Shown piece by piece: positions 25,920 to 56,263 of a DNA stretch of 64,000 bases. The DNA is from Escherichia coli (GTDB lineage: Bacteria; Pseudomonadota; Gammaproteobacteria; Enterobacterales; Enterobacteriaceae), in NCBI RefSeq assembly GCF_017348835.2, contig NZ_CP071375.1; one strand, written 5' to 3'. Each line of letters opens with the position of its first letter. Positions within the stretch are counted from its first letter, which is position 1. The notes under the pieces are model-generated. The model did no database searches and was not told the origin of the DNA. It worked only from the letters and a program-made list of their open reading frames with translations. A program made the translations under genes and the position numbers.

Positions 25920-26600
25920 CAAATGCGCCTATAAGGCTCTCTTACCAGCCGCGCCCTAACAGGCGCACACGATCTGACATTTGCATCCAACTTCGTTACT
26001 TACGGCCCGTAAACGGGCTGCCCGGATAGGGAATCGATAACTGCTCTACCATTTTATCCTCTTCAAGCTGGTGCTTTATGTAATCCTGTATCTTCGCCGT
26101 GTTCTTACCCACTGTATCGACGTAGTACCCTCTGCACCAGAACTCCCTGTTCCTGTATTTGAATTTCAAATCACCAAACTGCTCGTAAAGCATCAGACTG
26201 CTTTTCCCTTCCAGATATCCCATAAAGCCGGATACGCTCATTTTGGGCGGGATCTCCACAAGCATATGGATATGATCTGCACAGCATTCAGCTTCCAGAA
26301 TCCGTACACTTTTCCACTCACACAGCTTTCTCAAAATACTGCCTATTGCTCTACGCTTCTCTCTGTAGAACACCTGTCTTCGATATTTTGGCGCAAAAAC
26401 TATGTGATATTTACAGTTCCATCGGGTGTGCGCTAAGCTCTTTTCGTTCCCCATTGGGACCCCCTTTTGATTTCTTGTTTGACACTTGCAGTTGCCAGAC
26501 CGCAAGGTGTTTTAACAAATCAAAAGGGGTTTTAATAACTGGCTCAAAGCTGAAAGCTTTCCGGAACCCCCAGCCTAGCTGGGGGTTTTCTGTGCACAAG
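25920..26600 (-). mobile_element. IS200 insertion sequence (IS200/IS605 family); ends approximate
   Basis: Contains a 152-aa HuH tyrosine transposase and the characteristic IS200 5' leader hairpins; boundaries estimated to about +/-30 bp from the flanking pgm and potE terminators. Confidence 0.8.
25996..26454 (-). CDS. tnpA: IS200 transposase TnpA (HuH Y1 transposase)
   Basis: 152 aa from ATG 26454 (MGNEKSLAHTRWNCKYHIVFAPKYRR...) with HuH motif HIHML and catalytic Tyr in RGYYVDTVG; near-identical to the Salmonella IS200 TnpA from memory. Confidence 0.9.
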   Translation of the reverse strand: MGNEKSLAHTRWNCKYHIVFAPKYRRQVFYREKRRAIGSILRKLCEWKSVRILEAECCADHIHMLVEIPPKMSVSGFMGYLEGKSSLMLYEQFGDLKFKYRNREFWCRGYYVDTVGKNTAKIQDYIKHQLEEDKMVEQLSIPYPGSPFTGRK

Positions 26601-30157: not shown

Positions 30158-30312
30158 TTTGTTCATCTCTTTATTTCAGGTAATAGCAGGTCCTCAATTT
30201 CTCAAAGGAGAAATCGATCACGCCGGAAAAAAAGCAAAGCTCCACCGCTGATAAATAAATCAGTAGTTTGCTTTTTGCAGATGCAATAACCCAGACCAGC
30301 CCGGTAACTGGC

Positions 30313-30488
30313 TATACTCGTCATACTTCAAGTTGCATGTGCTGCGTCTGCGTTCGCTCACCCCAGTCACTTACTCATGTAAGCTCCTGGGGATTCACTC
30401 GCTTGTCGCCTTCCTGCAACTCGAATTATTTAGAGTATATACTCGTCATACTTCAAGTTGCATATGCTGCGACTCGAATTATGTAGAG
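30313..30488. repeat. ERIC (enterobacterial repetitive intergenic consensus) element with a partial tandem duplication
   Basis: Core at 30355-30398 contains both ERIC PCR primer sequences (reverse complement of AAGTAAGTGACTGGGGTGAGCG, then ATGTAAGCTCCTGGGGATTCAC); full palindromic unit about 30313-30440; the left arm (30313-30346) is repeated at 30438-30471 with one mismatch. Confidence 0.8.
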
Positions 30489-30592
30489 TTTAAAAGGGTT
30501 AGCAGTATATGAGCACCGAGGGATACAGGTATTAACCTGTAATGCTTAAAGTCAGGGAGACCTGTACGCTGGGGTGCCCTTTAGTCAGAAGA

Positions 30593-30697
30593 CTAGCGGG
30601 CATTAAAGAAATGAAAGTCAAAACTATTACGATGGGCAAACTTCATGATATGGGTTGTCCGCCTTATATGAGGCATTAAGCGGTTATTATTTTCCAT
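30593..30697 (-). CDS. speFL: speFL ornithine-sensing arrest leader peptide
   Basis: 34-codon ORF MENNNRLMPHIRRTTHIMKFAHRNSFDFHFFNAR ending in TAG; matches the described SpeFL arrest peptide. Confidence 0.8.
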   Translation of the reverse strand: MENNNRLMPHIRRTTHIMKFAHRNSFDFHFFNAR

Positions 30698-30892
30698 TTA
30701 CCTTTACCTCTTGCTGTGTCAGTTGAAGGTAGAGTTATTCTATCCATGAAATGGCTATAATCTGTGAAGAAGATCAACAAAAAACGATCATACCCCAGAT
30801 AATAAATCATTAATTATGAATAGCGCCATATTAGACGCTGTTTTGTTATTTAAATGTTGTAATTTTGTGTTTTATATTTGCGTTAAGAAATT

Positions 30893-30926
30893 AAACCTGC
30901 CAAATAATAATATTTGGTGCAGGTTT
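30893..30926 (-). terminator. probable kdpE terminator hairpin
   Basis: Imperfect hairpin aaacctgccaaata / tatttggtgcaggttt about 45 bp 3' of the kdpE stop, U-rich tail on the transcript. Confidence 0.5.
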
Positions 30927-30971
30927 AATAATAAATTAATCACTATTTAAGCGAATTTATTGAATAACAAT

Positions 30972-53540: not shown

Positions 53541-54824
53541 TTAATGTTTAACATCTGATTTAAAGTCTCGTTTTTCATAGCCGGTGTACAACTGGCGCGG
53601 ACGGGCGATCTTCATGCCGTCACTGTGCATTTCGCTCCAGTGAGCGATCCAGCCAACGGTACGGGCCATAGCGAAGATGACGGTGAACATGGAAGACGGA
53701 ATACCCATCGCTTTCAGGATGATACCAGAGTAGAAATCGACGTTCGGGTACAGTTTCTTCTCGATAAAGTACGGGTCGTTCAGCGCGATGTTTTCCAGCT
53801 CCATAGCCACTTCCAGCAGGTCATCTTTGGTGCCCAGCTCTTTCAGAACTTCATGGCAGGTTTCACGCATTACGGTGGCGCGCGGGTCGTAATTTTTGTA
53901 CACGCGGTGACCGAAGCCCATCAGGCGGAAAGAATCATTTTTATCTTTCGCACGACGAACAAATTCCGGAATGTGTTTAACGGAGCTGATTTCTTCCAGC
54001 ATTTTCAGCGCCGCTTCGTTAGCACCACCGTGCGCAGGTCCCCACAGTGAAGCAATACCTGCTGCGATACAGGCAAACGGGTTCGCACCCGAAGAGCCAG
54101 CGGTACGCACGGTGGAGGTAGAGGCGTTCTGTTCATGGTCAGCGTGCAGTATCAGAATACGGTCCATAGCACGTTCCAGAATCGGATTAACTTCATACGG
54201 TTCGCACGGCGTGGAGAACATCATATTCAGGAAGTTACCGGCATAGGAGAGATCGTTGCGCGGATAAACAAATGGCTGACCAATGGAATACTTGTAACAC
54301 ATCGCTGCCATGGTCGGCATTTTCGACAGCAGGCGGAACGCGGCAATTTCACGGTGACGAGGATTGTTAACATCCAGCGAGTCGTGATAGAACGCCGCCA
54401 GCGCGCCGGTAATACCACACATGACTGCCATTGGATGTGAGTCGCGACGGAAAGCGTGGAACAGACGGGTAATCTGCTCGTGGATCATGGTATGACGGGT
54501 CACCGTAGTTTTAAATTCGTCATACTGTTCCTGAGTCGGTTTTTCACCATTCAGCAGGATGTAACAAACTTCCAGGTAGTTAGAATCGGTCGCCAGCTGA
54601 TCGATCGGGAAACCGCGGTGCAGCAAAATACCTTCATCACCATCAATAAAAGTAATTTTAGATTCGCAGGATGCGGTTGAAGTGAAGCCTGGGTCAAAGG
54701 TGAACACACCTTTTGAACCGAGAGTACGAATATCAATAACATCTTGACCCAGCGTGCCTTTCAGCACATCCAGTTCAACAGCTGTGTCCCCGTTGAGGGT
54801 GAGTTTTGCTTTTGTATCAGCCAT
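53541..54824 (-). CDS. gltA: citrate synthase (type II)
   Basis: 427-aa [24 protein letters not shown]...; recognised as GltA. Confidence 0.97.
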
Positions 54825-55532
54825 TTAAGGTCTCCTTAGCGCCTTATTGCGTAAGACTGCCGGAACTTAAATTTGCCTTCGCACATCAACCTGGCTTTAC
54901 CCGTTTGTTATTTGGCTCGCCGCTCTGTGAAAGAGGGGAAAACCTGGGTACAGAGCTCTGGGCGCTTGCAGGTAAAGGATCCATTGATGACGAATAAATG
55001 GCGAATCAAGTACTTAGCAATCCGAATTATTAAACTTGTCTACCACTAATAACTGTCCCGAATGAATTGGTCAATACTTCCACACTGTTACATAAGTTAA
55101 TCTTAGGTGAAATACCGACTTCATAACTTTTACGCATTATATGCTTTTCCTGGTAATGTTTGTAACAACTTTGTTGAATGATTGTCAAATCAGATGATTA
55201 AAAATTAAATAAATGTTGTTATCGTGACCTGGATCACTGTTCAGGATAAAACCCGACAAACTATATGTAGGTTAATTGTAATGATTTTGTGAACGGCCTA
55301 TACTGCCGCCAGGTCTCCGGAACACCCTGCAATCCCGAGCCACCCAGCGTTGTAACGTGTCGTTTTCGCATCTGGAAGCAGTGTTTTGCATGACGCGCAG
55401 TTATAGAAAGGACGCTGTCTGACCCGCAAGCAGACCGGAGGAAGGAAATCCCGACGTCTCCAGGTAACAGAAAGTTAACCTCTGTGCCCGTAGTCCCCAG
55501 GGAATAATAAGAACAGCATGTGGGCGTTATTC

Positions 55533-55922
55533 ATGATAAGAAATGTGAAAAAACAAAGACCTGTTAATCTGGACCTACAGACCATCCGGTTCCCCATCAC
55601 GGCGATAGCGTCCATTCTCCATCGCGTTTCCGGTGTGATCACCTTTGTTGCAGTGGGTATCCTGCTGTGGCTTCTGGGTACCAGCCTCTCTTCCCCTGAA
55701 GGTTTCGAGCAAGCTTCCGCGATTATGGGCAGCTTCTTCGTCAAATTTATCATGTGGGGCATCCTTACCGCTCTGGCGTATCACGTCGTCGTAGGTATTC
55801 GCCACATGATGATGGATTTTGGCTATCTGGAAGAAACATTCGAAGCGGGTAAACGCTCCGCCAAAATCTCCTTTGTTATTACTGTCGTGCTTTCACTTCT
55901 CGCAGGAGTCCTCGTATGGTAA
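55533..55922 (+). CDS. sdhC: succinate dehydrogenase cytochrome b556 subunit
   Basis: 129 aa from ATG 55533 ([15 protein letters not shown]). Confidence 0.93.
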
Positions 55923-56263
55923 GCAACGCCTCCGCATTAGGACGCAATGGCGTACATGATTTCATCCTCGTTCGCGCTACCGCTATCGTCCTGACGCTCT
56001 ACATCATTTATATGGTCGGTTTTTTCGCTACCAGTGGCGAGCTGACATATGAAGTCTGGATCGGTTTCTTCGCCTCTGCGTTCACCAAAGTGTTCACCCT
56101 GCTGGCGCTGTTTTCTATCTTGATCCATGCCTGGATCGGCATGTGGCAGGTGTTGACCGACTACGTTAAACCGCTGGCTTTGCGCCTGATGCTGCAACTG
56201 GTGATTGTCGTTGCACTGGTGGTTTACGTGATTTATGGATTCGTTGTGGTGTGGGGTGTGTGA
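55916..56263 (+). CDS. sdhD: succinate dehydrogenase hydrophobic membrane anchor subunit
   Basis: 115-aa [22 protein letters not shown]...; overlaps sdhC and sdhA. Confidence 0.93.

Follow-up and report, generated by a model that had tools for sequence, protein, structure and literature searches.

In Escherichia coli K-12, gltA (b0720) and sdhC (b0721) are transcribed divergently from a common spacer, and the control exerted there is textbook TCA-cycle regulation. One CRP site is described as common to gltA-sdhCDAB (Shimada 2011), sdh is derepressed 133-fold in an arcA mutant (Park 2013), and in their passages on sdhC two publications (PMC5861419 and PMC6393394) report that Spot 42, RyhB and RybB all target this gene. 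Another group of described systems, the leader-peptide uORFs, is represented by mdtU-mdtJI (Adams 2021) and by speFL, and consists of short translated ORFs that precede a metabolic gene on its transcript and are followed closely by a mapped RNA 3′ end. Here we compare both with a spacer found in a 64,000-nucleotide stretch of E. coli DNA (contig NZ_CP071375.1; hereafter, the window), which also carries speFL. The spacer occupies positions 54825..55532 (708 bp) and lies between the following divergent genes.

53541..54824, minus strand: gltA (citrate synthase) CDS, left flank, a 427-aa ORF annotated as gltA in the PE164 and K-12 genomes
55518..55922, plus strand: sdhC CDS, with the start at 55533 (K-12, 129 aa, MIRNV...) or at 55518 (PGAP, 134 aa)

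PGAP puts the sdhC start 15 nt earlier, which would shrink the spacer to 693 bp. K-12 MG1655 754469..755176 aligned to the spacer without indels. The alignment of 801 columns was gap-free and had 4 mismatches, of which 3 fall inside the spacer; these three substitutions are located at 54907 in the gltA leader, at 55191, the base with which ArcA site 1 ends, and at 55295, which belongs to the 3′ end of ArcA site 2 and to the spacer of the sdhC promoter. The flanking genes, their orientation and the 708-bp length are identical to those of the K-12 locus. No change falls in the small ORFs ybgU and ybgV, in the CRP site, in the sRNA sites or, save for 55295, in the promoters; both ArcA sites agree save for terminal bases, and there is no structural difference. 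We are thus nearly certain that the interval is the already known gltA–sdhCDAB divergent control region of E. coli. Its closest match is the pig isolate PE164 (100% identity) rather than K-12, and of 5426 complete E. coli genomes, 5425 have a single copy of this DNA. For comparison among species, 80 related loci anchored on SdhC were collected (81 spacers in the comparison), which avoids a bias to intact ybgU. The divergent order was kept at all 79 loci where both genes were on the DNA retrieved, with spacers of 637-1159 bp. An Rfam scan of 54300..56000 at E ≤ 1 gave no matches.

The original prediction, made from the sequence of the window, described the stretch as a divergent gltA/sdhC spacer of 708 bp that separates two heavily regulated TCA-cycle promoters and contains a long sdhC leader. 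The spacer is real and collinear with K-12, the sites for ArcA, CRP and the sRNAs fall within it, and the TSS at 55310/55311 gives a leader of 222 nt, all in agreement with that description. The accompanying claim, that this is the longest non-coding stretch of the window apart from those containing insertions, is only approximate: it is exceeded by the kdpE–speF interval (30167..30971, approximately 814 nt), in which speFL is encoded, and by the interval between asnB and ubiF with its seven tRNA genes.

The rightward unit is made up of the following two features.

55276..55311, plus strand: sdhC promoter and transcription start site (TSS); TTGTAA, 17-bp spacer, TATACT (55276..55304, promoter scan), TSS 55310/55311
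55311..55532, plus strand: sdhC 5′ leader, 222 nt, the most conserved part of the spacer in the family-wide conservation profile

Three independent datasets agree on the sdhC start at 55310/55311, namely Cappable-seq (754178 in U00096.2, score 180), the data of Kim 2012 (2074 reads, 222-nt UTR) and SMRT-Cappable-seq (754954). The TSS and both hexamers match K-12, the single change in the promoter being that at 55295 between the hexamers, and the sdhCDAB-suc mRNA starts rightward from this one strong sigma-70 promoter. Pairwise divergence within Escherichia was 0.014 in the leader versus 0.06 in the core. When 42 insert-less leaders were folded together with RNAalifold, the long-range pairs were all invariant and the covariation term was −0.44, which speaks neither for nor against a structure, and the minimum free energy of the E. 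coli leader had z = 0.14. The terminator scan returned a single hit, a minus-strand candidate at 55464..55450 in the leader, which was weak, had no other support and was rejected.

The binding sites for regulators lie upstream of this promoter or overlap it.

55160..55191, no strand assigned: ArcA-P site 1 with three direct repeats; it overlaps the distal gltA promoter (Park 2013 supplement)
55243..55296, no strand assigned: ArcA-P site 2 with four direct repeats; it extends over the −35 and promoter spacer of sdhC (Park 2013 supplement)
55223..55238, no strand assigned: candidate CRP site CGTGACCTGGATCACT, the sole TGTGA-N6-TCACA match (up to 2 mismatches) in the spacer

Site 1 was published as TTGTAACAACTTTGTTGAATGATTGTCAAATT (U00096.2 754027..754058, a ChIP-seq peak) and site 2 as U00096.2 754110..754163, −71 to −18 of sdhC (Park 2013). 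By sequence match, both sites are present in the window, site 1 differing from the published sequence only at its last base (55191) and site 2 showing one difference, at 55295. The centre of the candidate CRP site is at −80.5 from the sdhC TSS and at −79.5 from the distal gltA TSS. The CRP pattern was not enriched in the window (12 found versus 26 expected), and therefore the assignment to CRP rests on the literature.

Leftward transcription into gltA starts at four positions, which derive from K-12 grown in rich and minimal media.

54825..55039, minus strand: major gltA mRNA 5′ leader, 215 nt, TSS 55039 (SMRT-Cappable-seq; Kim 2012)
55046..55074, minus strand: main gltA promoter, −35 TTGACC (55074..55069), 17-bp spacer, −10 TATTAG (55051..55046); sequence in Kim 2012
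55075, minus strand: minor gltA TSS with a 251-nt leader (SMRT-Cappable-seq, K-12 754719)
55131, minus strand: minor gltA TSS with a 307-nt leader (SMRT-Cappable-seq, K-12 754775)
55151..55188, minus strand: distal gltA promoter, −35 TTGACA (55188..55183), 18-bp spacer, −10 TACAAA (55164..55159), TSS 55151; both hexamers identified by sequence inspection

The major TSS at 55039 is K-12 754683 in SMRT-Cappable-seq and U00096.2 753906 in Kim 2012, and a full-length b0720 transcript at 753128..754683 is listed by SMRT-Cappable-seq. The distal TSS at 55151 is K-12 754795 in the same dataset, and the numbering "−68 to −37" used in the ArcA paper (Park 2013) implies a gltA TSS near 55123. TSS 55131 is served by a perfect −10 box, TATAAT, at 55141..55136. 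Earlier transcript mapping by Wilde and Guest in 1986 is said to have placed gltA starts 196 and 299 nt upstream and the sdhC start 219 nt upstream, which is consistent with the TSS datasets.

The original prediction took all of this region to be regulatory and none of it coding, and regarded the small ORFs there, for example 54806..54997, as unsupported. That plus-strand ORF is indeed without annotation in K-12 and PE164. The examples given were on the plus strand only and the minus-strand ORFs were overlooked; on the minus strand, K-12 annotates two small genes whose products have been detected experimentally, and an RNA 3′ end follows them.

55030..55137, minus strand: ybgU (b4735), 35 aa, MRKSYEVGISPKINLCNSVEVLTNSFGTVISGRQV (K-12 and PGAP annotation, Pfam PF23495)
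55014..55046, minus strand: ybgV (b4768), 10 codons, GTG start, (M)VDKFNNSDC (K-12 annotation 754658..754690)
55003, minus strand: mapped 3′ end of an RNA, within the leader of gltA and 11 nt beyond the stop codon of ybgV (K-12 754647, Adams 2021 supplement)

ybgU overlaps the 5′ part of ybgV in a different frame, and both sequences in the window are exactly those of K-12. The YbgU sequence is identical to UniProt YBGU_ECOLI and matches PF23495 over its full length, 1-35, with 100.5 bits (cutoff 27). PGAP calls the ORF in all E. coli genome rows examined, among which YbgU is nearly invariant, and an AGGA Shine-Dalgarno sequence is located 10 nt ahead of its ATG. In K-12, YbgU was detected by a chromosomal SPA tag with immunoblotting, by tetracycline ribosome profiling and by top-down mass spectrometry (MS), the MS spectrum being among the two weakest and requiring confirmation with a synthetic peptide, and its accumulation is comparable to that of other validated small proteins. 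YbgV was identified in K-12 by ribosome profiling with retapamulin and Onc112 and confirmed by tagging (immunoblot), and it exceeds YbgU in both ribosome density and protein level. Published profiling thus places translated small ORFs within the stretch that had been taken as purely regulatory, and by its own criterion the original prediction is contradicted on this point.

The TSS maps determine which transcripts carry the two ORFs. The major gltA mRNA (TSS 55039) begins inside ybgV and bears neither of them, whereas ybgV is carried by the full-length gltA transcripts from TSS 55075, 55131 and 55151, and ybgU by that from 55151 only. This distal mRNA starts AGGAAAAGCAUAUA-AUG and is the sole isoform bearing the ybgU start. 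Since ybgU and ybgV are found only on minor long-leader gltA mRNAs, they are upstream ORFs, and the TSS maps suggest that the transcripts in question would be controlled by ArcA; the 5′ end of the 55151 isoform would coincide with the ybgU Shine-Dalgarno sequence. Adams 2021 describes the 3′ end at 754647 (minus strand) as abundant, lying 179 nt upstream of gltA, flagged "uORF" and not Rho-dependent. A terminator scan and local folding at 55003 revealed no terminator-like hairpin (fold z = −0.34).

The main gltA promoter sits within ybgU, and the GTG of ybgV is overlapped by the −10 of this promoter. By motif coordinates the ybgU ATG is inside the TATAAT box; the start codons of both ORFs are in or against gltA −10 boxes. 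The conservation of ybgU/ybgV DNA is attributed to the main gltA promoter, of which both the −35 and the −10 are inside ybgU. Within Escherichia, pN/pS of ybgU was 0.94 versus 0.027 for gltA, and no other frame scored as high as that of ybgU, the remaining five in this DNA giving 0.47-0.75; the confidence interval on the ybgU value is wide because only 5 Escherichia sequences, with about 7-8 substitutions per pair, were available. Variable sites in ybgU within Escherichia numbered 4/8/4 by codon position. Across the 81 spacers no codon periodicity was found in ybgU (variability of 0.111/0.129/0.134 at positions 1/2/3), and its periodicity ratio was at the 35th percentile among all 108-nt windows of the spacer.

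The integrity of the ORF gave a similar picture. ybgU was intact in 29 of the 81 spacers and broken in 52, with independent stops at codons 10, 14, 20, 22, 24 and 27 and with ATG changed to ATA or ATT in several genera. The ORF was whole in each of the five Escherichia lineages sampled and in some further genera. Breaks recurred in Citrobacter, Enterobacter, Lelliottia and the Klebsiella oxytoca group, and the ATG was lost (ATT/GTT) in Buttiauxella and Atlantibacter. Retention of ybgU in the related spacers (28/80) was compared with that of two ATG-ORFs antisense to the sdhC leader, which were retained in 27/80 and 41/80. For ybgV, a start codon was present at the equivalent position in 81/81 spacers and opened a short ORF of 1-11 codons each time, the sequence, length and stop position of which varied.

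These comparisons suggest that the ybgU and ybgV peptides are not under purifying selection. On balance we favor, by a modest degree of confidence, the explanation that ybgU and ybgV are translated as by-products of DNA serving as promoter and leader, proto-gene-like and without a selected peptide function. As such they would be a modest addition to what is known, a clean example of translated ORFs arising in promoter DNA, with no change to how the system is understood. As counterpoints to the by-product explanation, YbgU is intact and nearly invariant in the E. coli rows examined, has its own Pfam family and accumulates like other validated small proteins, young lineage-specific proteins can function without deep conservation, and the strong 3′ end at 55003 could mean a short regulatory or independent transcript and not idle passengers.

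Another explanation is that ybgU and/or ybgV act in cis as uORFs, their translation altering processing or termination at 55003 or access to the gltA start, with the peptide itself irrelevant; gltA output from particular isoforms would then be translation-dependent. Both ORFs are on full-length gltA transcripts from upstream TSSs, the abundant 3′ end comes just 11 nt beyond the ybgV stop, and Adams 2021 includes ybgV-gltA in a list of validated small ORFs that are followed within 200 nt by an RNA 3′ end, in which respects they resemble the leader-peptide uORFs. This explanation is also favored by YbgV having more ribosomes and more protein than YbgU, and the missing peptide conservation fits a uORF whose translation, not product, counts. 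The start codon at the ybgV position in every spacer, followed by a short ORF, points in the same direction; however, this conservation is explained by the −10 boxes that hold the start codons, and neither ORF length nor stop position is conserved. MdtU has a C-terminal region whose conservation extends to 17 genera or more (Adams 2021), whereas the ybgU/ybgV peptides and stops are not. The ybgV-gltA 3′ end further departs from the leader-peptide systems, and counts against a cis-acting uORF, in that it is not Rho-dependent according to the published table and has no terminator-like hairpin. In addition, the ORFs are missing from the major mRNA isoform, so that any uORF effect is limited to the minor ones, and no experimental link of ybgU/ybgV to gltA expression was found in the literature. 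Taking both sides into account, we consider a cis-acting role rather unlikely. If it were true, the lifting of ArcA repression would let the distal gltA promoters fire, the share of long-leader mRNA continuing beyond 55003 would be determined by translation of the ORFs, and a translational layer would be added to the control of citrate synthase.

It is distinctly doubtful that YbgU, perhaps together with YbgV, acts in trans as a small protein whose function is under selection in Escherichia, its gene being young, lineage-restricted and overlapping with the gltA promoter. Detection by chromosomal tag, ribosome profiling and top-down MS, the curated Pfam family PF23495 and the UniProt entry would be expected of such a protein, and the 35-aa ORF is intact across E. 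coli genomes generally, where it is called by PGAP, as well as in five of five Escherichia lineages sampled and some other genera. Against this, the pN/pS of 0.94 is the highest among the six frames, there is no third-position excess, and the ORF is repeatedly broken or deprived of its start in other genera, at a retention equal to that of the null ORFs. The MS evidence includes one of the two weakest spectra, for which a synthetic peptide is needed, and the ybgU start is present only on the isoform from the least proximal TSS.

That the whole 708 bp is untranslated regulatory DNA and RNA with none of its small ORFs expressed agrees with the way the sequence evolves, like regulatory DNA, and with the plus-strand ORFs carrying no annotation, but it is already refuted by the published profiling and tagging unless these are tag-insertion artefacts, as two CDSs are annotated here in the reference genome, both products were independently detected in K-12 publications, and the window equals K-12 across both ORFs and their upstream promoters. 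What stands of the regulation-only claim is that the DNA is constrained as regulatory sequence and not as protein; what does not is the exclusion of translation, two small ORFs being translated in K-12. The spacer is in this sense a calibration case: called non-coding from sequence alone, it held two annotated and detected small genes on the opposite strand.

Returning to the sdhC side, pairing of the three small RNAs with the leader was predicted as follows, together with an insertion that bears on one of them.

55468..55490, plus strand: predicted Spot 42 site, −65..−43 from the 55533 ATG (windowed duplex search)
55504..55526, plus strand: predicted pairing of RybB (55508..55524) and RyhB (55504..55526) over the sdhC translation initiation region
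55449..55505, plus strand: clade-specific insertion of about 57 nt in the sdhC leader, present in 22/81 spacers

Spot 42 nt 3-26 formed a local duplex with the leader at ΔG −26.6, better than 30 of 30 shuffles. [quoted passage not shown] RybB (ΔG −15.2) and RyhB (ΔG −17.3) at the initiation region were not better than shuffles, and the predicted RybB site is retained in nearly all species compared. Control of sdhC translation by the three sRNAs would not differ here from that known in E. coli, the predicted RybB and RyhB sites overlapping the initiation region. Another RyhB candidate at 55371..55396, with 13-bp complementarity and ΔG −24.6, was within the shuffle range (minimum −25.6) and variable between genera, and was rejected. 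Full-length duplexes of the sRNAs with the leader contained long interior loops, and shuffles were equally good.

The predicted Spot 42 site falls inside the insertion, and strong Spot 42 pairing was confined to species with the short insert. The 22 carriers comprise Escherichia, Citrobacter and Salmonella, plus a few with a longer form. Repression of sdhC by Spot 42 may thus have arisen recently in the Escherichia–Citrobacter–Salmonella clade, when about 57 nt were inserted into a leader that is nearly invariant elsewhere along its length. A combined account, with isoform-specific regulatory uORFs on gltA and, separately, a recent clade innovation in Spot 42 control of sdhC, seems to us unlikely. 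The placement of the Spot 42 site within a clade-restricted insertion is a modest addition that leaves the understanding of the system unchanged. In K-12, the 5′ edge of the insertion coincides with two 3′ ends mapped by Term-seq, 55447 and 55454 (Adams 2021 supplement).

The spacer between the divergent gltA (− strand) and sdhC (+ strand, where the ORF beyond the spacer encodes SdhC) is 708 bp long (54825..55532), as originally predicted, given the K-12 sdhC start at ATG 55533 (MIRNV...); with the start at 55518 called by the NCBI pipeline PGAP, it would be 693 bp. In a megablast search, 5425 of 5426 complete E. coli genomes each had a single copy of 54700..55650, with identity of 100% to the pig isolate PE164 and 99.8% to many other E. 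coli. The expected collinearity with K-12 MG1655 was confirmed by a gap-free spacer alignment with three substitutions, at 54907 (within the gltA leader), 55191 (the final base of ArcA site 1) and 55295 (close to the 3′ end of ArcA site 2, between the −35 and −10 of the sdhC promoter and 4 bp from the latter). The divergent arrangement was found in 79 of 80 related loci, with spacers of 637-1159 bp. The description of this spacer as the longest non-coding stretch was roughly right, but two others are longer, the tRNA cluster between asnB and ubiF and the kdpE–speF interval (30167..30971). The latter, placed by collinearity with PE164, holds the speFL leader peptide and a PGAP "hypothetical protein". 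In PE164, an IS200/IS605 tnpA lies between potE and pgm (predicted window position ~25996..26454, assuming collinearity) and is probably the insertion to which the original prediction alluded.

Features in and beside the gltA–sdhC spacer (window positions)
53541..54824, − strand: gltA (citrate synthase, 427 aa), ORF in the window sequence
55014..55046, − strand: ybgV (b4768; K-12 754658..754690), GTG start, K-12 RefSeq CDS encoding (M)VDKFNNSDC
55030..55137, − strand: ybgU (b4735; K-12 754674..754781), K-12 RefSeq CDS encoding MRKSYEVGISPKINLCNSVEVLTNSFGTVISGRQV
55039, − strand: gltA transcription start site (TSS; K-12 754683), leader to gltA ATG 215 nt, SMRT-Cappable-seq
55075, − strand: gltA TSS (K-12 754719), leader 251 nt, SMRT-Cappable-seq
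55131, − strand: gltA TSS (K-12 754775), leader 307 nt, SMRT-Cappable-seq
55151, − strand: gltA TSS (K-12 754795), leader 327 nt, SMRT-Cappable-seq
55188..55183 and 55164..55159, − strand: distal gltA promoter for TSS 55151, −35 TTGACA, 18-bp spacer, −10 TACAAA, read from the sequence
55160..55191: ArcA site 1, three direct repeats over the distal gltA promoter, ChIP-seq and footprint of Park et al. 2013, mapped here
55243..55296: ArcA site 2, four direct repeats over the sdhC −35 and spacer, same source, mapped here
55276..55304, + strand: sdhC promoter TTGTAA-17-TATACT, promoter scan
55449..55505, + strand: clade-specific ~57-nt insertion immediately 5′ of the sdhC ribosome-binding region, 81-spacer comparison

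The original prediction attributed the whole region to regulation rather than coding. The regulatory part held, as ArcA sites, a candidate CRP site and predicted sRNA sites could all be mapped; the non-coding part did not, because ybgU and ybgV are annotated and detected. Both sequences are identical to K-12 in the window, and the PGAP annotation of PE164, like that of all E. coli among the matches listed, has the ybgU ORF as a "hypothetical protein". YbgU matches Pfam PF23495 (100.5 bits; UniProt YBGU_ECOLI). In PMC6001520 it was seen by chromosomal SPA tagging and immunoblot, and also counted as an unidentified positive in a tetracycline ribosome-profiling screen; it also appears in top-down mass spectrometry, with a weak spectrum compared with a synthetic peptide (PMC12529367). 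YbgV was found by retapamulin/Onc112 ribosome profiling, confirmed by tagging, and is more abundant than YbgU (bioRxiv 10.1101/511675). It is thus on ribosome profiling that the non-coding claim fails, since published profiling detects translation of both genes. The central features are already in the reference annotation and literature, and the finding is an ordinary one.

An arcA mutant derepresses sdh 133-fold and gltA 7-fold (Park et al. 2013). The candidate CRP site CGTGACCTGGATCACT at 55223..55238 is the sole CRP-like sequence in the spacer, although by itself the pattern match carries no statistical weight; the centre of the site lies 80.5 bp from the TSS of sdhC and 79.5 bp from the distal one of gltA, and one CRP site was reported to serve both divergent units (Shimada 2011). 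The sdhC TSS is at 55310/55311 in Cappable-seq (score 180), Kim 2012 (2074 reads, 222-nt UTR) and SMRT-Cappable-seq. In the last dataset, full-length b0720 (gltA) transcripts start at four TSSs; that at 55039 was found independently by Kim 2012, with promoter TTGACC-17-TATTAG, and positions in Park et al. 2013 imply a gltA TSS near 55123. Cappable-seq also gives a modest + strand TSS at 55110 (U00096.2 753977, score 10.6), which points toward sdhC and is antisense to ybgU, and weak ones at 55232 and 55406.

The small genes overlap this promoter DNA closely. Both the −35 (55074..55069) and the −10 (55051..55046) of the main gltA promoter lie within the ybgU ORF, the ybgU ATG is contained in a perfect TATAAT (55141..55136) serving as −10 for TSS 55131, and the first base of the ybgV GTG is the last base of the main −10. 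The mRNA starting at 55151 begins with AGGAAAAGCAUAUA-AUG, the Shine-Dalgarno of ybgU. From these positions, the major gltA mRNA lacks both ORFs, ybgV is carried by the three minor isoforms and ybgU only by the longest; both are upstream ORFs on the gltA mRNAs with long leaders.

Selection on the peptides was assessed with 80 loci gathered through SdhC, so that sampling was unbiased with respect to ybgU. In an alignment of 81 spacers (MAFFT), conservation at the DNA level was high across the entire interval, and that of the ybgU segment did not exceed its neighbours. Variability at ybgU codon positions 1/2/3 was 0.111/0.129/0.134, and the periodicity ratio stood at the 35th percentile among all 108-nt windows of the spacer. 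The ORF was intact (canonical start, 30-45 aa) in 29 of 81 spacers, with independent interruptions at codons 10, 14, 20, 22, 24 and 27; ATA or ATT stood in place of the ATG in taxa that include the Klebsiella oxytoca group, Atlantibacter and Buttiauxella. Under the same rule, two control ATG-ORFs antisense to the sdhC leader were retained in 27/80 and 41/80 loci, compared with 28/80 for ybgU. Within five Escherichia lineages, pN/pS was 0.94 in the ybgU frame, the highest of six (others, 0.47-0.75), and 0.027 in gltA; variable ybgU sites were distributed 4/8/4 over the codon positions, and the invariant blocks within ybgU were the gltA −35 and −10. Among 5425 E. coli genomes, 5252 have the segment at 99% identity or more, and because of this near uniformity, intactness within E. 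coli proper says little. The ybgV GTG, which abuts the −10 box, was always a start codon (ATG in four species), followed by an ORF of 1-11 codons, variable in sequence and stop position.

This is almost certainly the known gltA–sdhC control region, and ybgU and ybgV are translated in E. coli. On balance we favor, with some reserve, the reading that the two lack a selected peptide function; they would be by-products of promoter and leader DNA. The main rival, a cis effect of their translation on the minor gltA isoforms, appears rather unlikely. One observation favors it: Adams et al. (PMC7815308) include "ybgV-gltA" in their set of validated small ORFs that have an RNA 3′ end <200 nt downstream, and their table places this end at K-12 754647 (window 55003), 11 nt past the ybgV stop and not Rho-dependent; a terminator scan and local folding found no terminator-like element there. 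A trans-acting function of YbgU as a young gene is disfavored by the selection tests and improbable. That nothing is translated in the spacer, taken literally, is refuted by the published detection.

In the sdhC leader, the 5′ two-thirds (55311..55445) shows the highest conservation in the spacer. Escherichia divergence is 0.014 there; the promoter core has 0.06, and pS in gltA is 0.24. No Rfam family matched the leader. RNAalifold predicted long-range helices, UCUCCGG (55314-20)/CCGGAGG (55434-40), CUGC/GCAG and CAGCGU/ACGCUG, which covariation neither supports nor refutes because all pairs are invariant in 42 species. Most genera have, at the leader position corresponding to ~55366..55390, a short hairpin with a U-run, the stem sequence differing by genus (ATCTG/CAGAT, CTCC/GGAG, GCTTC/GGAGT; mean z −1.16 over 37 unique sequences, weak in E. 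coli at z 0.14); no published RNA 3′ end is reported at this hairpin.

Pairing was predicted using the K-12 sRNA genes. Spot 42 (nt 3-26) would pair with 55468..55490 (ΔG −26.6, exceeding 30/30 shuffled targets), in agreement with PMC5861419, which places its site "about 50 nt upstream of the start codon". Weaker sites were predicted over the initiation region for RybB (55508..55524) and RyhB (55504..55526), consistent with published work reporting sdhC as a target of all three sRNAs. [quoted passage not shown] The ~57-nt insertion encloses the whole Spot 42 site and is present in 22/81 Enterobacteriaceae spacers, namely in Escherichia, Citrobacter, Salmonella and Intestinirhabdus and, in a longer form (+64-70 nt), in Lelliottia, Huaxiibacter and others. 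Across the 81 spacers, Spot 42 pairing was predicted at −21 to −27 kcal/mol where the short insert is present, versus −15 to −20, the background level, without it. Published Term-seq 3′ ends at 55447 and 55454 fall at the 5′ edge of the insertion. The location of the site in a clade-restricted insertion is a minor observation that may be new.

A second minor observation, which may also be new, is that the sdhC start is ambiguous: ATG 55533 (K-12, UniProt; 129 aa) and ATG 55518 (PGAP; 134 aa, MWALF extension) are both annotated. Across the family, 55506..55532 hardly varies at any of the three codon positions. In the three relatives that are most distant, the 15-nt stretch is missing and sdhC begins directly behind the invariant AAUAAGAACAGCAU, where E. 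coli has its upstream ATG 55518, which the predicted RybB and RyhB sites straddle.
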